NCBI GenBank assembly: GCA_043808545.1
Contig: JAZDEU010000002.1
Coordinates: 1 to 32,972 of the forward strand
Source: a bacterium
Lineage (GTDB): Bacteria > Patescibacteriota > Patescibacteriia > JAZDEU01
Reading direction: 5' to 3'
DNA: 32,972 bases
The notes beneath the pieces were generated by a model. It did not search any database, had not been told where the DNA came from, and saw only the letters and a list, made by a program, of their open reading frames with translations. Positions 2,065-29,026 of the stretch are shown piece by piece. A program made the position numbers and the translations under genes. Every line of letters begins with the position of its first letter. Position 1 is the stretch's first letter.

Positions 2065-2112
2065 TGTCATCCCGAGCGTAGTTTTGTCATCCCGAGCATA
2101 GCCGAGGGATCT
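2065..2112. repeat. TGTCAT-family palindromic element (partial copy plus full copy)
   Basis: tgtcatcccgagcgtag then tgtcatcccgagcatagccgagggatct (2085-2112). Reverse-complement relatives at 17226-17280 and 29221-29247. Confidence 0.8.
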
Positions 2113-7504: not shown

Positions 7505-9091
7505 ATGAAAAATCCCAAACTCAAACCCCTAAAAGTCCTATTCGTATCCGTAGAAGCTGCTCCATTTGCTAAAGTCGGCGGACTTGCCGATGTCGCAGGC
7601 GCGCTTCCGCAAGCTCTAAAAAATTTAGGAGTTGATATTAGCGTAATAATGCCGCTTCACAAATGCGCTAAAAAAATATTAGCTGAAAAAAAATATAATG
7701 TAAAAAAAATTATTCATAATTTTTCTGTTGAATATAATGGGGGAAAAGAAAAAATAAATGTTTATCAAGCAATGTTAAAACTTGCTAATAAAGGCTTAAC
7801 ACCCCCCTTACCCCCCTCAAGAGCCTGCCCTGAGCGACAGCCGAATGGGGGGGAACTAAAGGACAGTGTCTTAGTTTATTTTATTGATCATAAGATGTTT
7901 ACATCCGCGGAAGAAGTCTATGAAAATGAAAATAAATTTTTATTTTTTTCAAAAGCTGTAGTAGAGCTTATCGCGACTCACACCCCCCTTGCCCCCCTCA
8001 AGTGTGGAATTTATAATCCAGATATTATTCACTGCAATGATAATCATATCGCGCTAATACCAGTGCTAATAAAAATTAAAAAGCTCCCCATAAAAACAGT
8101 TTTTACAATACATAATCTGATGTATCAAGGAAAAATATCCACTGAAGATTTAAAACTTTTAAACATCTCTAAAGAAAGCGCAAGCTCGCTCAAAAAAGAT
8201 TCTGAAAACGGCGATATAAATAAAATGGCACAAGGGATTCTTTTATCAGACATAATAAATACTGTGAGTCCAACTTACGCAAAAGAAATTTTGACAAAGG
8301 AATACGGCGAAGGACTGGACAATATTTTAAAGATGCGAAAGAAGGATTTATATGGTATAATAAATGGCATAGACACTGAAAATCTTAATCCAGAAAATGA
8401 TCCTTTAATACCTTATGATTATTCTATAAAAAATTTGGAAGGCAAAAAGAGATGCAAAGAGGAGTTATTAAGAAAATACTGGGTTACCCCTCTTTTTAAA
8501 GGAGGGGAATGTACCGATTTACCACCGCTCATCGGACTTGTTTCTCGGATAGACTCGCAAAAAGGAATAGACTTAGTAATTGAAGCTATGCCGGAATTAT
8601 TTAAAAACCATCCAGATACGCGTTTTATTTTATTAGGAACGGGACTCCCAGAATACGAAAATCAATTAAAGACGCTGGCTTCAAAATATCCTGATAATTT
8701 TAAAGCACTAATTAAATTTGATATAAAAATAGCGCAAAAAATTTATGCGGGTTCTGATATATTTTTAATGCCTTCCAGATTTGAACCTTGCGGTCTTGGG
8801 CAGTTAACTGCTATGCGATATGGGACTGTTCCGATTGTAAGGAAAACAGGCGGACTTGCGGACACGGTTATAAAACTCAAATCTCAAATCTCAAATCTCA
8901 AAACTGCGGATGGATTTATGTTTGATGAATATTCAAACATTGCGATGCTAGAAGCTATTGATATAGCATTAAATGTTTATCAGGATAAAAAAATATGGAA
9001 ACAGCTAGTGATAAACGGGATGCGCAGAGATTCATCGTGGGACGCGTCAGCTAAAAAATATTTGGAATTATACAAAAAAATGTCTGCGTAA
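7505..9091 (+). CDS. glgA: Glycogen synthase (GT5) carrying in-frame repeat-derived inserts
   Basis: KVGGLADV, TIHNLMYQG, TVSPTYAKE, PSRFEPCGL and GGLADTV motifs. At 528 aa it is longer than typical GlgA because of the inserts. Confidence 0.96.
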   Translation: MKNPKLKPLKVLFVSVEAAPFAKVGGLADVAGALPQALKNLGVDISVIMPLHKCAKKILAEKKYNVKKIIHNFSVEYNGGKEKINVYQAMLKLANKGLTPPLPPSRACPERQPNGGELKDSVLVYFIDHKMFTSAEEVYENENKFLFFSKAVVELIATHTPLAPLKCGIYNPDIIHCNDNHIALIPVLIKIKKLPIKTVFTIHNLMYQGKISTEDLKLLNISKESASSLKKDSENGDINKMAQGILLSDIINTVSPTYAKEILTKEYGEGLDNILKMRKKDLYGIINGIDTENLNPENDPLIPYDYSIKNLEGKKRCKEELLRKYWVTPLFKGGECTDLPPLIGLVSRIDSQKGIDLVIEAMPELFKNHPDTRFILLGTGLPEYENQLKTLASKYPDNFKALIKFDIKIAQKIYAGSDIFLMPSRFEPCGLGQLTAMRYGTVPIVRKTGGLADTVIKLKSQISNLKTADGFMFDEYSNIAMLEAIDIALNVYQDKKIWKQLVINGMRRDSSWDASAKKYLELYKKMSA

Positions 9092-9157
9092 AATCCGCGT
9101 CACTATCCGCGTAAATCCGCGAGAATAAAATAAATATTTACTAATCTATTCAAAAAT

Positions 9158-10084
9158 ATGAGCATATTAAAACCAGAGATACGAAAAGACTACATCCAAG
9201 AAAAATATGTTATTATCGCGCCTTTAAGAAAAAAGCGCCCGCGCCAGATTGAAAAACCGCAAATATCCGAGGTCCAAGACCAAACATGCGTTTTTTGCCC
9301 GGAGCAAGTTGATAAAGTAAAAGATTTATTAACAATCGGTCCGCGAAAAAATTGGCGCATAAAAATTATTAGAAATATATTCCCTGCTGTTTCTTTAGAT
9401 AATCCTAATGCTTATGGAACGCAAGAAGTCGTTATAGAAACTCCTGAACATGTAAGAGAGTTAGATGACTTGCCTGAAAAACATATTATGGAGCTCTTAG
9501 AAGTTTACGCTTTGCGCACTAAAGAAATATCAAAAAATAAAAAAATCCAATATATCCTGATTTTTAAAAATAACGGCGGACGGGCGGGAGCTTCAATAAT
9601 CCATTCTCATTCGCAAATTTTCGCCACATCCTTCATCCCTCCGAATTTAATTGATAAAAGCCAAAGAGTCCAAGCTTATAAATTAAGCAATGGGAAATGC
9701 GTTTACTGCGATGTTATTGAAAAAGAATCAAAAAGTCCGAGAATAATTTATAAAGATAAAAATGTAATAGCATTTACTCCTTACGCGTCTATTCATAATT
9801 ACGAAGCATGGATAATGCCGCTCAAGCATATTGATAATATAACATGCCTTAATAAAAATGAAAAAGAATCTTTCGCTAAAATTTTAAAAATGATTCTTAA
9901 AAAAATAAACGCGCTAGGACTACCCTATAATTATTATTTCCATCAGGTTATTAATGATGAAGATCAGCATTTATATATGAAGATAACACCGCGCGGAAGC
10001 GTTTGGGCCGGCGTGGAAATCGGCTCCGGGTTAGTTATAAATCCAGTTTCTCCCGAAGACGCGGCAGAGTATTATAGGAAATAA
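9158..10084 (+). CDS. galT: Galactose-1-phosphate uridylyltransferase-family protein
   Basis: CVFCP, N.FP, GASIIHSHSQ (HxHxQ) and CVYCD motifs. Confidence 0.88.
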   Translation: MSILKPEIRKDYIQEKYVIIAPLRKKRPRQIEKPQISEVQDQTCVFCPEQVDKVKDLLTIGPRKNWRIKIIRNIFPAVSLDNPNAYGTQEVVIETPEHVRELDDLPEKHIMELLEVYALRTKEISKNKKIQYILIFKNNGGRAGASIIHSHSQIFATSFIPPNLIDKSQRVQAYKLSNGKCVYCDVIEKESKSPRIIYKDKNVIAFTPYASIHNYEAWIMPLKHIDNITCLNKNEKESFAKILKMILKKINALGLPYNYYFHQVINDEDQHLYMKITPRGSVWAGVEIGSGLVINPVSPEDAAEYYRK

Positions 10085-10139
10085 TGAATTATGAATCATG
10101 AATTATGGTTTATTGTCTAGATATTTTGTTATAAATTTT

Positions 10140-10167
10140 GTAGGGGCACGATGCTTAGTGCCCCTAC
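10140..10167. repeat. GTAG-family 28-bp REP
   Basis: gtaggggcacgatgcttagtgcccctac. Confidence 0.82.
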
Positions 10168-10182
10168 TTTACGAACTAATAT

Positions 10183-11070
10183 ATGTTCACACTCGGCATT
10201 GACACCGGCGCTACTTCAATAAAAAGCGGCGTTGTTGACGAAAAAGGAAAAATAAAAAATTTTATAAAAATAAAAAACCAATTTGCCAATGGGGAAAATT
10301 TTTTAATTAAACAATTAGCAGGAATAATAAATGATTACAAAAAAATCTTTCCTATAAAAAAAGCTGGAATCGGATTCGCTGGATCAGTAAATTTCAAAAG
10401 AGGGATTATTATTGGAACTGCTAATATGAACGGAATAAAAAATTTATATATAAAAAGAGATTTAGAAAAAAAATGCGACATAGAAATAACAGTTGATAAT
10501 GACGCGCATTGTTTCGCTCTCGCGGAAACTCATTTCGGAGCAGGTAAAAATTATAAAGACATACTTTGCATAACTTTAGGCACAGGTATAGGCGGAGGAA
10601 TAATAATAGATAAAAAACTCTGCCGCGGAGCTGATAATACAGCTGGGAAAATAGGACATATTATAATTGATAAAAATTCTGATATAAAATGCGGATGCGG
10701 AGGCTTCGGACATTGGGAGAGCTTTACAAGCGGCAAAGCTTTAGCTAAGCTATATAAAGTAGCGACTGAACAAGAAGTGGATGCGGAGATAATCGCTGAA
10801 ATGGCGGGCAGAGGCGAGAAAATAGCGCAAAAAGTTATTATTGAGGCTGGCTATAATTTCGCGATAGGCATAGCGAATCTTCTAAATATTCTTAATCCTG
10901 AAATTGTAATTATCGGAGGAAGCCTTATAAAAATAGATTTGCTTTGGAACACATTTTTAAATAACCTTCCATCATTTCTAGAAGGAAAGGCCGTAGCAAA
11001 TACTAAAATAGTAAAATCAAAATTCGGAGATGAAGCGGGAGTAATTGGGGCGAGCTTATTATTTAAATAA
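10183..11070 (+). CDS. ROK-family sugar kinase (glucokinase-like)
   Basis: GIDTGAT, DNDAHCFALAE, LGTGIGGG, CGCGGFGHWE and IIGG motifs. Confidence 0.93.
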   Translation: MFTLGIDTGATSIKSGVVDEKGKIKNFIKIKNQFANGENFLIKQLAGIINDYKKIFPIKKAGIGFAGSVNFKRGIIIGTANMNGIKNLYIKRDLEKKCDIEITVDNDAHCFALAETHFGAGKNYKDILCITLGTGIGGGIIIDKKLCRGADNTAGKIGHIIIDKNSDIKCGCGGFGHWESFTSGKALAKLYKVATEQEVDAEIIAEMAGRGEKIAQKVIIEAGYNFAIGIANLLNILNPEIVIIGGSLIKIDLLWNTFLNNLPSFLEGKAVANTKIVKSKFGDEAGVIGASLLFK

Positions 11071-11119
11071 TGCTTTTCATTATTTTTGACTTTTGATTTT
11101 TAACTTTTGATTTTATTTT

Positions 11120-14044
11120 ATGCCCATACCACAGCTTACATATAAAGATCATAAAAGGCTTAATAATTCATCCTCTTCCCGCCGAAATCTTTATGATTCA
11201 CGCAGGAACCATACACTTCAAAGGGGGAAATATAATAAAAAAAATAAAAGAAGCTTTAAATTAAAAGTTTTTTTATTTCTTCTTAAAGCCGCTCTATTTC
11301 TTTTCGCCGCCGGCGCTATTGCTTTTGCATTTTTACTATGGAGATATTCAAAAGATTTACCTGCCGCGGACAAACTCATTGAAAGAGACATAGCTTTAAG
11401 CACGAAAATTTATGATCGCGCGGGCGAGACAATTCTTTATGATGTTCACGGAGAACAAAAAAGAACAATGGTAAGTCTTGATGAGATTCCGCAATACGCA
11501 AAAAACGCGACTATAACTGCGGAGGACCGAGATTTTTATACCCATCACGGCTTTGATTTAAAAGGAATAATACGAGCCATATTAACAAATCTATTAAGGG
11601 GAACATTGCATGGTCCGGGCGGCTCTACTATAACACAACAATTGGTAAAGAATGCTGTGCTAAGCTCTGAAAAAACATACTCGCGGAAATTAAAAGAACT
11701 TGTCTTATCTTACAGAATAGAAAATAAATTCTCAAAAGACGAGATTTTAAAAATGTATCTTAATGAAATACCATATGGTTCTACTGTTTATGGGATTGAA
11801 GCGGCGGCGCAAACTTTTTTCAATAAAAAAGCGTCTAAATTAACTCTGGCAGAATCTGCCATCCTCGCATCTTTGCCTAAAGCTCCAACTTACTATTCGC
11901 CTTATGGAAACAATAAAGATAAACTAATCGGCCGCCATCAGTATGTCTTAGATTCTATGGTTGAACAAGGATACATAACAAAAGAAGCCGCGGAAGAAGC
12001 GAAGAAAGAAACATTGAATTTTAATCCATTAACAGAAAATATTATTGCGCCCCATTTTGTTATGTATGTTAAAGAAATGCTGGCGGAAAAATACGGAGAA
12101 GATTTTATGGAACAAAGCGGTCTTAAAGTAATAACGACTCTTGATTTAGATAAGCAAAAAAAAGCAGAAGAAGCGATTAAAACCGGCGTTGAAAAAGCAA
12201 AAGAATTTAATGCAGGAAACGGCGCGCTAGTTGCTATTGATCCGAAAACTGGACAAATTCTCGCAATGGTCGGATCTCGCGATTATTTTGACACAGAAAA
12301 TGAAGGGAATTTTAATGTGGCGCTTGCGAAAAGACAGCCTGGCTCATCATTTAAGCCTATAGTTTACACCGCATTATTAGAAAAGGGATATACTACCGAA
12401 ACAATTCTTTTTGATGTAGCGACAAATTTTAAACCTAAAAATGATACTGCGGGAAAAGCTTATATCCCGCTTGACTATGACGAAAAAGAACGCGGTCCGA
12501 TAACAATAAGAAAAGCTCTGCAAGGATCTCTTAATATTCCCGCAGTCAAAGCGCTATATCTCGCGGGCTTAGATAATGTTTTAGATTTAGCAAAAAAACT
12601 AGGTTATACCACTTTACAAGACAAGAACAGATACGGACTTTCTCTTGTTTTAGGAGGAGGAGAAGTAACACTTTTGGAACATACTGCCGCTTATGGAATT
12701 TTAGCAAGAGAAGGAATTTTTAACCCTGCGGTCGCGATACTAAAAATAGAAGATAAAGACGGCAATGTAATAGAGGAATTTAAAGAAAACGGGACGAGAG
12801 TAATAGATGAGGAAATCGTGAGAAAAATGAATGACATTTTGTCTGACGACTCCGCGCGAAGTTATATTTTTGGATCTAACAGCAAACTAACTTTAAAGGG
12901 TCGCCCTGTGTGCGCGAAAACAGGAACGACAAACGATTATAGAGATGCGTGGACGATGGGATATACGCCATCTCTTGTTGCTGGAGTATGGGTTGGAAAT
13001 AATGATAATTCAGAAATGAAAAAGGGCGAAGGAGGAACGAGAGCCGCCGCGCCTATTTGGAATGAATTTATGACAAAAGTTTTAGGAGATGGAAATAAAG
13101 GAGATTCAACTCCGGTGGAAGAATTTAAAAAACCGAAAGAAGATTTTGTTGACAAAGTAATGCTTAACGGACAATCCAACAATGAAACACTCATAAAAAT
13201 AGATAAAGTATCTGGTAAAATCGCCACTGATTTTTGCCCTGAGTCTTATGTGGAAGAAAAAAAGTATGGTTCGGTGCATTCAATTTTATATTATGTTTCC
13301 AAAGATAAACCGAGAGGAGACATTCCAGAGAATCCCAGCGTTGATCCGCAATTCGCTGGCTGGGAGACTGCGGTTTTAAAATGGGCGACCAGCACAAAAG
13401 AATTGACTTTAGAAAATCCGCCAACGGAAAAATGCTTTTTGCATAATTTAGAAAATAAACCTGTCTTAAATATTGTTTATCCGTCTGACAAAGATACTGT
13501 GCAATCTAAAAATATAGAAATACGGGTTGACGCGACCGCGCCAAAAGGAATACATCATATTGATTATTATATAGATGATACGCTCGCGCAAACTGTCGCC
13601 ACTTATCCTTTTAATTTAAGTTATCCTGCTGTAAAAATAGCTAACGGATTTCATACGATAAAAGCAAAAGCTTATGATGATGTTGAAAATTTTAATGAAG
13701 CTTCCATTGAAATAAATTTGATGATTGGACGGGATCCGATTAGCGCGTATTTTGAAGCGCCCCAGCAAAATGCGTCTTTCTCATCATCTTCTTTCCCTAT
13801 AAAATTCGTAATAAAAATTTCCGATCCCCTAAACTCGCAAAGCATAAAAATTTTATCGCAAAAAGATGGCGAAACAAGTCAGATAATAAAAACTTTTTCT
13901 GATAATGAAATATTATCTGACACGCTTGAGTTTACTTGGGGAGATAATCCTGTTGCTGGAAATTATAAATTTTACATTGAAGCGATTGATAAAAAAAATA
14001 GATATACAAGAAGCGAGGAGCTTGAGATGAAAATTTTGAGATAA
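11120..14044 (+). CDS. Class A penicillin-binding protein (PBP1A) with C-terminal Ig-like domains
   Basis: TM helix; transglycosylase motifs EDRDFYTHHG, GGSTITQQLVKN and RKLKE; transpeptidase motifs SSFK, SLN and KTGT. Confidence 0.95.
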   Translation: MPIPQLTYKDHKRLNNSSSSRRNLYDSRRNHTLQRGKYNKKNKRSFKLKVFLFLLKAALFLFAAGAIAFAFLLWRYSKDLPAADKLIERDIALSTKIYDRAGETILYDVHGEQKRTMVSLDEIPQYAKNATITAEDRDFYTHHGFDLKGIIRAILTNLLRGTLHGPGGSTITQQLVKNAVLSSEKTYSRKLKELVLSYRIENKFSKDEILKMYLNEIPYGSTVYGIEAAAQTFFNKKASKLTLAESAILASLPKAPTYYSPYGNNKDKLIGRHQYVLDSMVEQGYITKEAAEEAKKETLNFNPLTENIIAPHFVMYVKEMLAEKYGEDFMEQSGLKVITTLDLDKQKKAEEAIKTGVEKAKEFNAGNGALVAIDPKTGQILAMVGSRDYFDTENEGNFNVALAKRQPGSSFKPIVYTALLEKGYTTETILFDVATNFKPKNDTAGKAYIPLDYDEKERGPITIRKALQGSLNIPAVKALYLAGLDNVLDLAKKLGYTTLQDKNRYGLSLVLGGGEVTLLEHTAAYGILAREGIFNPAVAILKIEDKDGNVIEEFKENGTRVIDEEIVRKMNDILSDDSARSYIFGSNSKLTLKGRPVCAKTGTTNDYRDAWTMGYTPSLVAGVWVGNNDNSEMKKGEGGTRAAAPIWNEFMTKVLGDGNKGDSTPVEEFKKPKEDFVDKVMLNGQSNNETLIKIDKVSGKIATDFCPESYVEEKKYGSVHSILYYVSKDKPRGDIPENPSVDPQFAGWETAVLKWATSTKELTLENPPTEKCFLHNLENKPVLNIVYPSDKDTVQSKNIEIRVDATAPKGIHHIDYYIDDTLAQTVATYPFNLSYPAVKIANGFHTIKAKAYDDVENFNEASIEINLMIGRDPISAYFEAPQQNASFSSSSFPIKFVIKISDPLNSQSIKILSQKDGETSQIIKTFSDNEILSDTLEFTWGDNPVAGNYKFYIEAIDKKNRYTRSEELEMKILR

Positions 14045-14049
14045 AAAAT

Positions 14050-14677
14050 ATGCTTCATAATATCGAACAACTACAGAAAAAATTTGGCAAAATTTTCAAC
14101 TTTATTGATTTTGGGAATGTAAATAAATGGTTTGATAAAGATAATAAAAATTTTGATGGAACTATTCTAAAAGAAAATGAAAAATTAATTGTTGATATTA
14201 ACAAACTTGCTAATTTTACTAAAACATTTTCAAAGCACGCTAGATTTTATTATGGGCTTGATCCTGAGAATAAAGGTTCAATCCATATAATCGCTAAAGC
14301 AAGAAAGCACTTCAACAAAACAGTCGCGAAGCCTTTACAGAACATTAAACATTATCTAATGGGCGACGAGGACAGCACGCGAAAAATAAATCATGATTCT
14401 AAAGGAAAATTTATCTATATCCCAAAATGCAACTTTGATGTTGAGATTTGCATAGATGCCGTTAGATTTATTAATAAATATAATACTTTTTGTTTGTTTT
14501 CCAGTGATGCTGATTTTGTATATCTACTTAACTTTCTGAAAAAAAAATAATAAAAAAATAATTCTAATAAAGGGAGGGTATGCGCAATATAATCTGGTAA
14601 AACAAGCAGATTTAGTTATCAATGCTCAAGAAATAAAAAAATATATCACCCTTATAAAGCAAAAATCTCGCCACTAA
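14050..14677 (+). pseudogene. NYN-domain (PIN-like) nuclease gene with a one-base frameshift in an A9 run
   Basis: FIDFGNV, KCNFDVEICID and SSDADF motifs. The ORF stops at 14550, but removing one A from 14539-14547 continues KKNNKKIILIKGG...ADLVINAQEIK...KQKSRH* to 14677 (208 aa). Confidence 0.85.
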
Positions 14678-14733
14678 GGCGAGATTTGCGTATATCTGAC
14701 CCGCATCCGCGGGCAGGGTAATCTTTCAATTAC
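14659..14733 (-). ncRNA. Candidate ~75-nt small RNA convergent with and overlapping the NYN gene end
   Basis: GUAAUU-GAAA-GAUUAC hairpin, CUG-CCCGC-GGAU-GCGGG-U-CAG hairpin, and a 10-bp terminator stem AAAUCUCGCC/GGCGAGAUUU plus U tract. It has its own promoter. Confidence 0.6.
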
Positions 14734-14739
14734 AATATT

Positions 14740-14767
14740 ATTGTATCACATACTAATATATTGTCAA
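14740..14767 (-). promoter_or_regulatory. Promoter of the candidate sRNA
   Basis: TTGACA-N16-TACAAT with an extended TG. Confidence 0.6.
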
Positions 14768-15001
14768 GAGTTTATGTCAGTTTTGTCAGTTTTATTATAA
14801 AATAATGGTTGACTTTTTAATTGAAGAAGGGAAATTTAAAAAAATACTTTTCCCAAACAAAAATTCGCGTCTTCGTTGTATAAAAAAAACGAGAGTTTAT
14901 TTTGATTACCTCGTTAATATAAAACATCGCATTGAATTAAAATAAAAAAGGGGACCTTTGCTCTTGCGATCGCCGGGACCCTTTTGTCTTGATGTAATAT
15001 T

Positions 15002-15030
15002 AGTATATATCAAATTAATTCGTTTGTCAA
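15002..15030 (-). promoter_or_regulatory. Near-consensus sigma70 promoter with no convincing downstream CDS
   Basis: TTGACA (15030-15025)-N17-TATACT (15007-15002). Confidence 0.6.
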
Positions 15031-15060
15031 GAATTAAATTTTCATGTTCTGTTTCAACAA

Positions 15061-15104
15061 AAAAAATAAGGCTTCGCAGTTTTGTAAAAACAACTGCGAA
15101 GCCT
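15061..15104 (-). terminator. Intrinsic terminator of the repeat-protein gene
   Basis: 13-bp stem AGGCTTCGCAGTT/AACTGCGAAGCCT followed on the minus strand by TATTTTTTTT. Confidence 0.75.
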
Positions 15105-15120
15105 GTATTGGCAGTAATCG

Positions 15121-15576
15121 TCAAGAAAAGAATAATTCCAAAATATTTTTCTCTTTGGCGCTATCAACGACCGCTTTCAGGGAAAGCTCGCGGCTAAGGT
15201 TGCGGACATCGCTATCACCGAAAGTTTGGCAGTTAATAAGATATTCCAGCTGTTTCGCCAATTCTTCCTCTGCTACTTTCAGGGAAAGCTCGCGGCTAAG
15301 GTTGCGGACATTGCTATCATCGGATTTTTGGCAGTTAATAAGATATTTCAGCTGTTTCGCCAATTCTTCCTCTGACATTCTGCGCATTACTTTCAGGGAA
15401 AGCTCGCGGCTAAGGTTGCGGACATTGCTATCATAGGATTTTTGGCAGTTAATAAGATATTCCAGCTGTTTCGCCAATTCTTTCGCCACTACTTCTGAAT
15501 TATTAACTGTCCTCATAACTTCCAAATGACTAATACTTCCTTTTTGTATCTCTTCAAAAATCATTTCTATAGACAT
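15121..15576 (-). CDS. Small hypothetical protein with three near-identical helical (HEAT-like) repeats
   Basis: 3x ELAKQL(E/K)YLINCQ...DS(N/D)VRNLSRELSLK. It has an upstream GAGGGG SD-like motif and a downstream terminator. Confidence 0.7.
   Translation of the reverse strand: MSIEMIFEEIQKGSISHLEVMRTVNNSEVVAKELAKQLEYLINCQKSYDSNVRNLSRELSLKVMRRMSEEELAKQLKYLINCQKSDDSNVRNLSRELSLKVAEEELAKQLEYLINCQTFGDSDVRNLSRELSLKAVVDSAKEKNILELFFS
15174..15482. repeat. Coding tandem repeat, three units
   Basis: Units start at 15174, 15276 and 15390 (periods 102 and 114 bp, both multiples of 3). Confidence 0.9.
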
Positions 15577-15606
15577 TTCACGCCCCTCATCTTAAATTGT
15601 TAATTT

Positions 15607-17421
15607 ATGCAAACTACAGAACAAAAAGATCAATATAATAAACTATCATATCTAAAAAAAATTGTCAAATATTTATTCTTTCTTTTTATATTTCTTTTGC
15701 CCATCCAAACCCGCTATATCTATCAACAAGCCACGCTAAATAATGGCGCGTGGGAATACGGGACTTTAAGCTTATACGCGACGGAAATCTTGTTAGGGAC
15801 AATAATTATTTTGTATATAATTGGATTTATAGGGGCGTATTCTAGGGCATATCGCAATATGCCCCTACAATTATACACTGAAAACGGGAAAAAAAATCTA
15901 AAAAATCCGCTTATTTTTTTACCGCTCGCATTACTGCTTTGGTCTGTAGCATCTATCTTTTGGGCTTATGACAAAATGCTCGCTTGGGATAGATGCATAA
16001 TTTTAATGGAAGGGATTATAGTGTATTTGTTCATTATTAAAATCCCCCTCTTTTCCAAAGAACCTGCCCTGAGCGATAGCCGAATGGGGGGGTTAGGGCC
16101 TGCCTGCCTGTCTGCGCAGGCAGGCGCAGGCAGGGAGATTTCTCCAAGCGCAAAACCTACTCAAATAGAAAACGCCTCCAGATATAACAACCCAGAAAAA
16201 TCCCCCTGTATCCCCCTTTACAAAAGGGGGAGCTATCTAATCCCCCTAATCGCCAGCGCAATCTGCCAATCAATGCTCGCTATTTACCAGTTCGCTTCCC
16301 AGCAAATAATTGCGAATAAATGGCTTGGCATAGCATCCCACTTGCCAGAAACACTCGGGACATCTGTTGTTGAAACGCCGCTTCGCCGATGGTTGCGCGC
16401 TTACGGAAGCCTGCCGCATCCTAATATTCTAGCGGCATATTTAGGAATTGCTCTCCTTCTCTTTATTATATTTATCTTCAATAAATCTCCAAAAAAAAAT
16501 CAGCAATCCGAACTTACAAATACCGAAGAATTAAAACAACGATTATCAGGGATACTAAAAGTATTCGCTATTTTCTTAATAAGCGCAGCTATTATTTTTA
16601 CATTTTCCCGCGCCGTATGGATAGGATTATTTCTCTCTATAATAATATTTTTAGTCTTTAATAAACTACCGCGTCATCCTGATAAAAATAAAACACGGCG
16701 TCATCCTTCCCCCGCTTTAGCGGGGGAAGGATATCTCAAAATGACACAAAATTTTCCCTTTATCCCATCTTTCGGTTTTTTTATTTTATTCCTCTTCGTT
16801 TTATTCCTCGCGCGCGAACCTATAATGGCGAGAATTTCAAATTCAAACAGATTAGAACAAAAATCAAACCAAGAACGTATGTTATCCTATAAAGAAAGCA
16901 AGGATATTATAAAAGAAAACTGGTTGATTGGAACTGGAATTGGAAATTACACTCTTGCTTTATACAAAAAAAATCCAAGTCTTTCCGCTTACGAATACCA
17001 GCCTGTTCATAATTTATTTATACTAATATTCGCCGAACTAGGAATCTTCGGCTTATTGATTTTTTTATTATTCCTTTTTTATATTACTAAAAAAATTATA
17101 CAAAATCACTTAGTGTCTGTTGAAATATTCGCAGAGTGTCATTCCGACCGAGCGAACCAGCCACCCAAACGGCTGGTTCGTAAGTGGAGGAATCTGTTTA
17201 TTAAACCAAATTTGGTGCGGTCAACAGATCCCCATTCGGCTATCGCTCAGGGCAGGCTCTCGGCTACACTCGGGATGACAAAGGAATACTATTTCAACAG
17301 CAACTACTTCATCATCTTATTTATATTCATACTTCTAATCTCTCTTTTTGACCATTATTTCTGGAGCCTGTATTTCGGAGTAATACTCTTCTGGATTTGT
17401 ATGGGAATTATAATCTCTTAA
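15607..17421 (+). CDS. O-antigen ligase (Wzy_C)-family membrane protein with multiple repeat-derived inserts
   Basis: Multiple TM helices; RAYGSLPHPNILAAYL, TFSRAVW, GTGIGNY, PVHNLFILIFAELG and LFDHYFW motifs. Confidence 0.88.
   Translation: MQTTEQKDQYNKLSYLKKIVKYLFFLFIFLLPIQTRYIYQQATLNNGAWEYGTLSLYATEILLGTIIILYIIGFIGAYSRAYRNMPLQLYTENGKKNLKNPLIFLPLALLLWSVASIFWAYDKMLAWDRCIILMEGIIVYLFIIKIPLFSKEPALSDSRMGGLGPACLSAQAGAGREISPSAKPTQIENASRYNNPEKSPCIPLYKRGSYLIPLIASAICQSMLAIYQFASQQIIANKWLGIASHLPETLGTSVVETPLRRWLRAYGSLPHPNILAAYLGIALLLFIIFIFNKSPKKNQQSELTNTEELKQRLSGILKVFAIFLISAAIIFTFSRAVWIGLFLSIIIFLVFNKLPRHPDKNKTRRHPSPALAGEGYLKMTQNFPFIPSFGFFILFLFVLFLAREPIMARISNSNRLEQKSNQERMLSYKESKDIIKENWLIGTGIGNYTLALYKKNPSLSAYEYQPVHNLFILIFAELGIFGLLIFLLFLFYITKKIIQNHLVSVEIFAECHSDRANQPPKRLVRKWRNLFIKPNLVRSTDPHSAIAQGRLSATLGMTKEYYFNSNYFIILFIFILLISLFDHYFWSLYFGVILFWICMGIIIS
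17111..17306. mobile_element. Composite MITE-like element inside the ligase CDS
   Basis: Terminal inverted repeats TAGT..CTGTTGAAATA / TATTTCAACAG..ACTA enclose a TGTCAT...ATGACA doublet (17137-17280). Same architecture as 29104-29267. Confidence 0.7.
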
Positions 17422-18544: not shown

Positions 18545-18627
18545 ACAATTATTTCAACTTAACCTTTAATTCAAAGGCACTGAGCGTTGGCCGAATGTAT
18601 GGTGTATTAAGCCAATCGTTATATTTT

Positions 18628-27133: not shown

Positions 27134-29026
27134 ATGGATCAAGTAGAAGAAATAAAACAAAAACTTGATATCGCGGATGTAATTTCAGGTTATATTAAAC
27201 TCACTCCGGCGGGAATATCTATGTTTAAGGCGAATTGCCCGTTTCATAGCGAAAAAACGCCTTCTTTTATGGTGTCCCGCGAAAAGCAAATTTTTAAATG
27301 TTTCGGATGTGGAAAAGGAGGGGATATCTTTTCTTTTGTTATGGAAATGGAAGGGGTTGATTTTAAAGAAGCGCTTGAAATTTTAGCTCAAAAAGCGGGC
27401 GTACAGCTTAAAAAACAAAGTCCAAAAATAGCAGGCGAGAAAAATAAAGTATTGGATTGTCTAGAGATGGCGTCAAAATTTTATTATCAGGTTCTCTTGA
27501 ACGCCAGCTTGGCAGAAGACGCGAGAGCCTATCTTAAAAAAAGAAAAATAAACGAAGATACGATTGATAATTTTAAAATAGGATACGCGCCAGATTCATG
27601 GGATTCTTTATACAATGCGTTAAGAAAAAAAGAATTTTACGCGAATGACATTGAAAAAGCGGGTCTCATAATAAAAAAACAAAACGCGAATGATTATTAT
27701 GATCGTTTCAGAAACAGGATTATGTTTCCGATAAAAGATGTGAACGGAAGAGTAATAGGATTTTCGGGAAGAATACTGGAACAACACCCCCCTGCCCCCC
27801 CTCAAGGGGGGAACTCGCGTTCCAATGACGGTGCGGGTACTCCGGCTAAATACATAAATACTCCGCAGACAATAATGTTTGATAAAAGCAGAGCGCTTTA
27901 CGCGATAGATAAAGCGAGAGATGAGATAAGAAAAAATAATTTAGCAGTTATCGTAGAAGGGCAAATGGATGTTATCGCGTCGCATCAGGCTGGCATAAAA
28001 AATGTTATCGCGTCTTCTGGGACGGCGCTAACCTTAGAACATTTAAAAATTATAAAAAGATATACTTCTAATATCGCTCTTTCGTTTGATGGAGATGAAG
28101 CTGGAAAAAATGCGGCTAGACGAGCCGTAGAAATCGCGCTCCCTTTTGACATGGATATTAAAATAATAAAAATATTAGGGGTGAAAGATCCAGATGAGTG
28201 CATAAGAGAAAATCCAGAGAAATGGAAACAAGCTATTTTAGACGCGCAAAAATTTATGGATTATTATTTTGATGAAACGATTGTGAGCGCTAACTTAGAA
28301 AATATTGGAGAGAAAAAAACAGCGGCGAAAAAAATGCTGGAACTTATATCAAAAATTTTTGATAAAGTAGAACAAACGCATTATTTGCAAAAACTATCAG
28401 CATATCTGAATGTGCCTGAAAATATTTTGAGAGAAGTCCTGTCTAATAAAAAAAATGTTATAAAAACAGAAGAATCAAAAAAAATTATTAAAAAAAATTA
28501 TTTCGGAGAAAAGGATATAAACGCAAAAATAGCGGAAAGAATCATATCGTTTGCAATAATATACGCGGAGAATTTACCTTATGTCGTTGCTCATCTTTTG
28601 CCTGAATTTATAACTTCGGAAAAATTAAATAACCTTTACAAACAGATTATTATATATTATACTGAAAATCAAGGAAATGAATCTTTTTTAAGCGAAAAAA
28701 ATGCTTTAAAATTTTTTAAAAATTTTGCTTTGAAAGAAGAGGCAAGAGAAGAAAAAGAATATTTTGACGAGCTTTGGATATACGGAGAAAAAGAAATTAT
28801 TGACTTTAAAGAAAGCGAAGAAATTTTAACTCCTCAAAGAATAAAATTAGAGCTGGAAAAAGGAATTTCAGAGCTTAAAGAAAGTTATAATAAAAGAAAA
28901 CTTAATTCTTTGCAAAGAGAACTTCAAAAAGCGGAAGAAGAAAATAACAAAGAAAAAATAGAATTATTTTCAAAAGAATTTAATAAAATCATGGGAGAAA
29001 TGAGCAGAAATCTTGATGATAATTAA
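27134..29026 (+). CDS. dnaG: DNA primase
   Basis: CPFHSEKTPSF...CFGC zinc finger, DRFRNRIMFPI, KYINTP, and VEGQMD/FDGDEAG TOPRIM motifs. Start placed at ATG 27134 (MDQVEEIK). Confidence 0.98.
   Translation: MDQVEEIKQKLDIADVISGYIKLTPAGISMFKANCPFHSEKTPSFMVSREKQIFKCFGCGKGGDIFSFVMEMEGVDFKEALEILAQKAGVQLKKQSPKIAGEKNKVLDCLEMASKFYYQVLLNASLAEDARAYLKKRKINEDTIDNFKIGYAPDSWDSLYNALRKKEFYANDIEKAGLIIKKQNANDYYDRFRNRIMFPIKDVNGRVIGFSGRILEQHPPAPPQGGNSRSNDGAGTPAKYINTPQTIMFDKSRALYAIDKARDEIRKNNLAVIVEGQMDVIASHQAGIKNVIASSGTALTLEHLKIIKRYTSNIALSFDGDEAGKNAARRAVEIALPFDMDIKIIKILGVKDPDECIRENPEKWKQAILDAQKFMDYYFDETIVSANLENIGEKKTAAKKMLELISKIFDKVEQTHYLQKLSAYLNVPENILREVLSNKKNVIKTEESKKIIKKNYFGEKDINAKIAERIISFAIIYAENLPYVVAHLLPEFITSEKLNNLYKQIIIYYTENQGNESFLSEKNALKFFKNFALKEEAREEKEYFDELWIYGEKEIIDFKESEEILTPQRIKLELEKGISELKESYNKRKLNSLQRELQKAEEENNKEKIELFSKEFNKIMGEMSRNLDDN

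Follow-up and report, generated by a model that had tools for sequence, protein, structure and literature searches.

The window analysed here is a contig of 32,972 nucleotides (JAZDEU010000002.1, GenBank assembly GCA_043808545.1) from a bacterium of the class Patescibacteriia, and it contains three copies of a 27-base element, each nested within another repeat and each read through in frame by a long open reading frame (ORF), glgA in one case and an O-antigen-ligase-like (Wzy_C) ORF in the other two (Table 1). The assembly that holds the window (G000, of which the window is contig C2) comprises 878,563 bases in 71 contigs at 34% G+C and is 82% complete; it was compared with a sister genus (G003) and two further related genomes (G001 and G002). 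Sampled relatives of the same class all have genomes of 0.6-1.6 Mb, as in the candidate phyla radiation (CPR)/Patescibacteria, and four groundwater metagenome runs, all from one study, contain 0.25-0.87 of the words sampled from the stretch.

The 27-mer pattern described in the original prediction matches without mismatch at 7822-7848 (+), 16061-16087 (+) and 17232-17258 (-), and finds nothing in 100 dinucleotide-preserving shuffles of the window (expected 0 vs 3 seen). The observation of a precise, nested 27-mer is thus real and far beyond chance. Excising 7822-7848 yields CCCCCCTCAAGGGGGGAACT, which has one further intact occurrence, at 27796-27815 within an ORF of 643 residues identified by Pfam as DnaG (DNAG_N, Zn_ribbon_DnaG), and excising 17232-17258 yields a 28-mer, 26 positions of which agree with 2085-2112 in reverse complement; for this third copy, 28 exact empty junctions of 8+8 bases are present elsewhere in G000. 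As had been claimed, all three junctions read AG^GG without target duplication, the flanks being ..CTCAAG and GGGGGAACT (copy 1), ..CCAAAG and GGGGGTTAGGG (copy 2) and, on the minus strand, ..GCCGAG and GGATCTG (copy 3), and all three copies lie in coding sequence, in frame in ORFs with Pfam families. The boundary of the element is ambiguous by one base in G runs, where the heptamer hosts described below favour the register originally proposed. Two 'degenerate free copies' had also been named: that at ~18577 is truly degenerate, while that at ~5043 is intact and belongs to a sibling subfamily of shorter modules.

Table 1. Positions of the repeats and genes discussed, in the window except for the last row
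Feature	Position	Strand	Remarks
Empty TGTC-type stem-loop (TGTCATCCC GAGCATAGCCGA GGGATC), host type of copy 3	2085..2112	+	~30 such copies listed
Sibling module, TGTCCT type, short loop GAGCTTGCCGAA	5041..5065	+	intergenic, within AT-rich direct repeat
glgA (starch/glycogen synthase) ORF with copy 1 in a variable-length loop	7505..9091	+	PF08323, E 6e-63
C-run/G-run hairpin repeat CACCCCCC..CCCCCCTCAAG^GGGGGAACT, interrupted by copy 1	7800..7857	+	paralogue intact in dnaG
Module copy 1, GACAG variant	7822..7848	+	in frame in glgA, contributes to peptide SRACPERQPNGG
Wzy_C (O-antigen-ligase-like) ORF, 604 aa, with copies 2 and 3	15607..17421	+	Pfam
Repeat mosaic around copy 2	16044..16138	+	hairpin CCCCCTCTTTTCCAAAG^GGGGGTTAGGG, then CCTGCC/GGCAGG palindrome
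Module copy 2, begins AACC	16061..16087	+	in frame in Wzy_C-like ORF, encodes EPALSDSRMG
Host like a transposable element of the miniature inverted-repeat kind (MITE), ~190 bp + 27-mer, terminal inverted repeats CTGTTGAAATAGT	17110..17307	-	wholly within Wzy_C-like ORF
Module copy 3	17232..17258	-	inside TGTC-type stem-loop of MITE-like element; opposite-strand reading PHSAIAQGRL
Degenerate module-like stretch (GGCACTGAGCGTTGGCCGAATG..)	18577..18603	+	intergenic
Empty C-run/G-run hairpin repeat	27785..27815	+	in frame in dnaG
IS200-like Y1 transposase gene (L123)	G000 C67:316-759		one in-frame TAG; CGTC-type stem-loops upstream, matching hairpins both sides

The module family, its exact ends and its distribution

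G000 holds 11 copies of the 27-mer at up to five mismatches and 25 modules under a looser grammar (A[G/A]CN, TG, stem half YCCY, GAGC, 2-4 variable bases, GCCGA, R, optional T, GG), the 27-mer being one subfamily of modules of 24-27 bases. Each module consists of a 5' tail AGCNTG, a 4-bp stem (YCCY / R(N)GGR) and a conserved loop, GAGC-N2-4-GCCGA, of 11-14 bases. Subfamilies are distinguished by the loop (GATA/GACA, GAA, AAA, TT, CT or GC) and by the stem (TGCCCT..A(T)GG+G, TGTCCT..A(T)GG+A or TGTCCC..GGG+A), and the removable unit measures 27, 26 or 24 bases. The 27-mer has neither terminal inverted repeats nor a target-site duplication, as a MITE would, and it is not a stable palindrome, since neither by itself nor with its flanks does it fold better than shuffles. 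Rfam was searched with 13 cross-phylum loci, which gave no match up to an E value of 1, and with the window, which at the gathering score yields only four tRNAs; the idea that the element is a piece of rRNA, of tRNA or of some other described RNA is therefore rejected. The G000 assembly itself lacks the 23S gene and has a partial 16S.

Both terminal pairs of the stem vary in step. The inner pair, made of the bases that immediately precede GAGC and follow GCCGA, is T/A in 84, C/G in 18, C/A in 3 and T/G in 3 of 108 places tallied by hand. The outer pair, formed by the Y of TG-Y-CC and the base after the final GG, is complementary in 25/25 modules of G000 and in 26 of the 29 examined in G003, and its last base belongs to the target, because the empty sites and the heptamer periodicity place it there. 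Among cross-phylum cores of the C type (n=102) the next base is G in 92 and A in none, and among those of the T type (n=124) it is A in 60 and G in 55. These preferences follow a Watson-Crick pairing pattern in which G.T wobble is tolerated, and such pairing of the target base with the module means either that the element chooses a target base that pairs or that only such insertions persist.

The ends of the module were delimited by joining the 8+8 flanking bases for all offset pairs and seeking the resulting 16-mer elsewhere in G000. Removal of exactly 24, 26 or 27 bases gives an exact empty-site match for 21/25 modules, and the best offsets delimit the unit as AGCN...(T)GG; in the controls, 8+8 junctions recur at 176 of 3000 random positions and at 136 of 3000 AG^G sites. 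For the 27-mers only a 27-base removal restores the host, in the register of the original prediction or one base leftward. The unit is thus precise and inserted without target duplication, as first proposed. Filled and empty states can also be compared between orthologous sites of the two genera. Two sites filled in G003 are empty in G000, the first (L005) aligning with contig C58 with a gap over 27/27 module columns between flanks identical at 179/229 positions, and the second (L020) with C43 across the same 27-column gap (flanks 144/194). At a third site (L002 and C9) both genomes are filled, and the module is identical at 27/27 positions against 162/213 in the flanks. Empty and filled sites therefore exist, both as paralogous host copies and as two orthologous sites, which answers the objection that there might be none.

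The element is not peculiar to this genome. Its 25-base core (up to three mismatches) occurs in 3/61 relatives searched, with 11 copies in G000, 4 in G002 and 12 in G003, and 57 other families of the class yielded none; the general grammar matches in 48/301 genomes of the class, mostly with 1-3 copies (25 in G000 and 40 in G003), where a reversed-pattern control over the same 301 genomes gives five hits in total. Further afield, an exact 20-mer of the 27-mer is present at no fewer than 102 loci (at least; those listed are in Acidobacteriota, Planctomycetota, Verrucomicrobiota, Bacteroidota including Leeuwenhoekiella isolates, Methylococcaceae, Thermomicrobiales and several CPR groups), and an 18-mer of a sibling module at 120 or more, in still more phyla, closed Dehalococcoidia chromosomes with many modules being among the carriers, so that the 27-mer is a member of a cross-phylum family. 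No cyanobacterial locus is among the matches listed for either word. A module (AGCCTGCCCTGAGCGTAGTCGAAGG, after TAG) is also present inside an annotated transposase gene on plasmid pIAE1 of Trichlorobacter lovleyi (L142:2501-2528), in a region that adjoins qacEdelta1 and sul1; the plasmid collection search returned this plasmid alone, as one weak record (E 0.9). In Acidobacteriaceae (L032, L034, L047, L048, L055 and ~25 more loci) the module is fixed within one composite repeat, several per genome, with highly conserved flanks and a TTCTCG..CGAGAA hairpin before the module.

Landing sites and copies within genes

The sites at which modules stand share a purine step rather than one sequence. 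Across G000, G002 and G003, 22 family copies were compared; the last two bases of their 5' flank are AG in 18 and AA in 4, and the 3' flank starts with G in 20, so that the AG^GG junction holds for the copies in the window but is, as a full rule, a special case of this wider one. A two-base target duplication (AG followed by AG) was considered and rejected, as the flank and the first two module bases are unassociated in our own tabulation of the G000 modules. Read by hand, the junctions of the 25 G000 modules fall into no fewer than 15 distinct contexts. One host type is the C-run/G-run hairpin, entered at the boundary between the loop and the 3' arm; others are the TGTC-type stem-loop of the ~190-bp MITE-like element and a second site in that element, GTGGAG^GAATC. 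About 11/25 modules sit in 7-9-base tandem arrays with units of GTCAAAA, CTCAAAA, GGAAATT or TTAGGTGAA, and excising the unit from a heptamer array restores the 7-base periodicity. Modules are also found in one another: of 263 modules, three leave, once removed, a module core in reverse orientation spanning the junction, and one leaves a forward core, and tandem arrays of modules with a period of 24 exist. In unrelated metagenome-assembled genomes (L216, L225 and L248) such arrays consist of 24-base siblings placed head to tail, the first A of each unit being the stem-closing base of the preceding unit.

The original prediction saw in the element a hyper-parasite of other repeats that targets their hairpins. 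The first part stands, since modules sit in other repeats (21/25 flanks recur), and the second does not, with ~11/25 in tandem arrays; the reading of a parasite of repeats is right in outline, and hairpin targeting is too narrow. Nor is there the expected enrichment inside palindromes, as a perfect stem of at least 5 bp joins the flanks of 8/96 cross-phylum copies, compared with 5.9% for shuffled pairs. We accordingly reject hairpin targeting as a general rule, the flanks pairing no more often than shuffled ones do.

The hosts themselves are varied. The MITE-like element has 13-bp inverted repeats (17117-17129 and 17288-17300) and a TGTC-type stem-loop near each end; 27 full copies were aligned in G000, and some start at the first bases of a contig, which suggests that the element probably breaks the assembly. 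A truncated TGTC-type stem-loop (TGTCATCCCGAGCGTAG) lies at 2065-2081, three bases upstream of the full copy at 2085-2112. Immediately 3' of copy 2 (16097-16138) is a GC-rich palindrome of CCTGCC/GGCAGG units, translated within the Wzy_C-like ORF, whose 10-mers (e.g. GCAGGCAGGC) occur 10-18 times in G000 on both strands. At the same position of an orthologous gene, the sister genus (L008, on G003 C72) has a C/G-run hairpin with a module and G000 (C10:9985-10058) a GACTTTT tandem array, a difference which indicates that different repeats occupy one permissive site.

Almost half of the G000 modules (12/25) lie in ORFs of 292-1100 residues, five on the coding strand and seven on the opposite one. 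Every such unit is of 24 or 27 bases, and the three 26-base units are all outside long ORFs. By Pfam the ORFs concerned are GlgA, Wzy_C (two modules), GT4, GT2, PheS, FemAB, DNA polymerase I (PolA), two Mur ligases, a UvrD/PD-(D/E)XK helicase-nuclease and an alpha/beta hydrolase. The forward strand of the 27-mer contains a stop in two of its three frames; the glgA copy is in the frame where the T variant would read TAG, and carries C. The stretch of GlgA that holds this insert is absent from the G003 orthologue, G001 and G002 hold other inserts there, and the alignment of GlgA to solved starch synthases skips residues 63-116, the insert-bearing stretch. Likewise the Wzy orthologue of G001 is without both repeat-bearing segments (query residues 146-213, with copy 2, and 502-565, with the MITE-like element). 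As orthologues lack or vary the inserts and the units within genes keep the frame, the modules are translated and tolerated, not spliced out. More generally, the four GlgA orthologues (that of the window and L129-L131) each have a different insert or none at two loops, G001 with a translated stretch like a repetitive extragenic palindrome (REP) and G003 with a long insert further on. A metagenome search with GlgA found six loci; with 44% identity at best, they are too distant for alleles to be compared.

Candidate modes of movement

We regard the descriptive part of this work, that is the anatomy, ends, empty and filled sites, target pairing, gene copies and distribution of the modules, as very probably sound. 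How the modules came to their sites is a matter of weighing several accounts. In the one we prefer, the module would enter DNA as a unit, with exact ends and the target unduplicated, at a purine step, mostly AG^G or AA^G/A, and mostly within low-complexity repeats (C/G-run hairpins, TGTC-type MITE stem-loops, 7-9-base arrays and other modules). The first target base past the insertion point closes the stem of the module, so that module sequence and target base match, and copies in genes would persist only where a length of 24 or 27 and a suitable frame leave the gene open, being then translated as extra loop residues. The mover would be a Y1 (HUH) single-strand DNA transposase of the IS200/RAYT kind (RAYT, REP-associated tyrosine transposase), acting in trans, and its substrate would be the single-stranded DNA exposed in hairpins, in slipped repeats or at the replication fork. 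To this statement as a whole, mobile modules of 24-27 bases with a Y1 mover, we give a probability of roughly 0.45; the Y1 enzyme taken by itself is a circumstantial best guess, with the odds somewhat against it.

Elements of the IS200/IS605 group carry a hairpin at both ends, are moved by a Y1 HUH transposase without target duplication, and recognise the target by pairing with element bases. Y1 transposition is suggested for the modules because exact ends, absence of duplication, a strand-specific purine-step target and target-base pairing are hallmarks of these enzymes. The modules resemble both IS200/IS605 and the REPIN-RAYT systems (REPIN, REP doublet forming a hairpin) in the lack of target duplication, in insertion in one orientation beside a short motif and in pairing with the target (PMC3116915, PMC3733652), and would share with them a dependence on DNA secondary structure and the action in trans on tiny non-coding units. 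They differ in that those systems have two-end hairpins or REP doublets and are 5 to 50 times longer, the module being one weak stem-loop, and in that the target base paired with the module lies, on the strand as written, 3' of the point of insertion. Candidate enzymes are present. G000 has an IS200-like tnpA (139.6 bits) beside CGTC-type stem-loops, and two solo ends of that IS200-like element (C27:10966 and C29:5030) carry a module next to the hairpin. Matches to Y1_Tnp occur in G000-G003, with RAYT-like ORFs in G001-G003, and our own cross-tabulation places a Y1_Tnp match in 36/48 module-bearing genomes of the class against 127/253 without modules, and in 11/11 of those with at least three modules.

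Several observations weigh against this account. The tnpA of G000 carries an in-frame TAG; no counterpart of the RAYT-like protein of G003 was found by tblastn in the 82%-complete G000 (best E 0.038), and no module-type motif adjoins the RAYT-like genes. Y1_Tnp matches are missing from 12/48 module carriers, some of them at 99-100% completeness, and are common in any case (163/301), many being weak and the related genomes being non-independent. Known Y1 elements need a hairpin at each end, and the module has at most one, which is weak: the DNA fold of the 27-mer is -1.9 kcal/mol (z +1.1), and 174/200 shuffles fold as well. Finally, host copies that carry a module are diverged from their consensus.

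The strongest alternative is templated copying without a dedicated enzyme, in which, while slippage-prone DNA is replicated or repaired, a nascent strand would switch to a module copy, guided by purine microhomology of 1-3 bases (..AG / ..GG+R), copy it and switch back. As such microhomology predicts, the RR^R bases on both sides of the insert are found in empty sites too, pairing of the 3' target base would be automatic if the return switch used GG+R, and the hosts, hairpins and heptamer arrays, are slippage-prone structures. Against it, the same ends recur, on no more than 1-2 bases of homology, in several phyla and in at least 15 contexts, no copy among the loci inspected carries donor flank or is partial, and the first two module bases (AG or AA) are unassociated with the two that precede them. 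We consider this route unlikely.

Somewhat less probable again is that the modules are old passengers, inserted long ago and immobile now, which spread or persist only within larger repeats (MITEs, hairpin repeats and tandem arrays). The divergence of module-carrying hosts just mentioned fits this explanation, as do the groups of modules found at one junction of one host (three in the TGTC stem-loop, two in GTGGAG^GAATC and three in a single CTCAAA array) and the module fixed in the composite repeat of Acidobacteriaceae. It is, however, hard to square with 15 or more distinct junction contexts in a single genome of 0.88 Mb, with filled and empty orthologous sites that differ between sister genera, and with a module identical at 27/27 positions where the flanks are 76% identical, unlike an old neutral passenger.

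A third alternative, that the module is a selected structural motif, a short DNA or RNA stem-loop bound by a protein (e.g. a nucleoid, RNA-processing or ribosomal protein) and kept because it is useful, strikes us as improbable. It would account for a loop conserved across phyla, for a stem that covaries with G.T(U) tolerated, and for a module conserved above its flanks at the orthologous site L002/C9. Yet modules occur in both orientations and several frames of unrelated genes and in intergenic DNA, at no constant position relative to gene ends; related genomes hold anywhere from 0 to 40 copies, and there is neither an Rfam match nor a strong predicted fold. An assembly or sequencing artefact deserves almost no credence: the window does come from a fragmented metagenome-assembled genome of 71 contigs, but the module stands in frame within genes that are intact, recurs in an independent genome at an orthologous site, and is present on megabase contigs, in cultured Leeuwenhoekiella isolates and on the Trichlorobacter lovleyi plasmid.

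Related repeats and wider meaning

The nearest known kinds are the small dispersed repeats (SDRs) of cyanobacteria and the REPs tagged CGTC or TGTC. SDRs of Nostoc punctiforme and other heterocystous cyanobacteria are reportedly, after Elhai and colleagues in 2008, dispersed units of 21-27 bases that insert precisely and were argued to be mobile; they are said to lie frequently inside other repeats, inside hairpins and inside heptamer tandem repeats. On that description the modules share with SDRs their size, nesting, link to heptamer arrays, period-24 tandem arrays and precise presence or absence at like sites. SDRs are cyanobacterial, whereas the modules are found in CPR and many other phyla, with no cyanobacteria among the matches listed, and target-base pairing is not known to be part of the SDR description. 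The Rickettsia palindromic elements (RPEs) are larger, roughly 100 bp or more against the 24-27 bases of the module. SDRs have elsewhere been characterised as ~20 bp long, tandemly repeated and possibly mobile (PMC2884548), and the available part of Delihas 2011 (PMC3184786) does not cite them.

RPEs are inserted in frame in housekeeping genes and translated (PMC3733652), and the modules resemble them in standing in frame in protein-coding genes (12/25). RPEs are, however, longer palindromes of one lineage, and nested insertion of 27 bases is not part of their description in the accessible sections of that paper. The same paper (Di Nocera, De Gregorio, Rocco 2013; PMC3733652) defines the CGTC REP superfamily as small stem-loops with an unpaired end tag CGTC, also TGTC or CCTC, that are alike across phyla, are without a dedicated transposase, sit sometimes within other palindromes and are found in frame in genes, notably those of replication and repair; the criteria are an 8-9 bp stem starting AT, a loop of 4-5 and a tail CCA. 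The module is likewise a small multi-copy repeat (24-27 bases, where the criterion is 20-40 bp), alike across phyla, without a dedicated transposase, in genes and in palindromes, and the host stem-loop TGTC-AT-CCC...GGG-AT-C fits the REP grammar. T-type modules have TGTC before the stem; the 27-mer has TGCC, a tag not listed in the sections of that paper that treat the superfamily, and AGCN precedes the tag. The module departs from these REPs in its stem of 4 bp (one pair supplied by the target), its loop of 11-14 bases and the want of a CCA tail, and neither nesting as a rule nor insertion into tandem arrays is described for REPs in those sections. Mobile DNA that lands specifically in other repeats is known from insertion sequences directed at the hairpins of REPs (IS1397, PMC3116915; Tobes and Pareja 2006, PMC1525189), which differ from the modules in being full insertion sequences with their own transposase and with target duplications. 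RepRanger (2025; PMC12306157) mentions neither CPR nor nesting in the available portion of its text. Literature searches by exact strings of the module nucleotide cores, their complements or the encoded peptides found no paper, and a word search found none on such repeats in CPR bacteria.

A broader generalisation is that these modules form a pan-bacterial class of 24-27 bases, the smallest self-defined mobile DNA, whose own bases would read the target, moved by the ubiquitous Y1 enzymes or by the replication machinery. Through insertion into hairpins, tandem arrays and one another they would build mosaics like those of REPs, bacterial interspersed mosaic elements (BIMEs) and MITEs and add loops to essential proteins across phyla. 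We hold this to be doubtful as yet, with the odds well against it. If the modules truly move, they would set the lower size limit of mobile DNA at about 24 bases and would follow a simple target rule, namely a purine step at which the element pairs with the 3' base. Such movement would account for nested repeat mosaics and for extra loops in essential enzymes of the compact CPR genomes, here PolA, PheS, Mur ligases and GlgA, as well as DnaG with its host repeat. The family may also bear on what propagates the CGTC-type REPs, which are without a known transposase, and on near-identical short repeats in unrelated phyla. Modules split and inflate gene predictions and break assemblies, and their cultured carriers, Leeuwenhoekiella (L. 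polynyae, for instance) and Trichlorobacter lovleyi, open the way to experiments.

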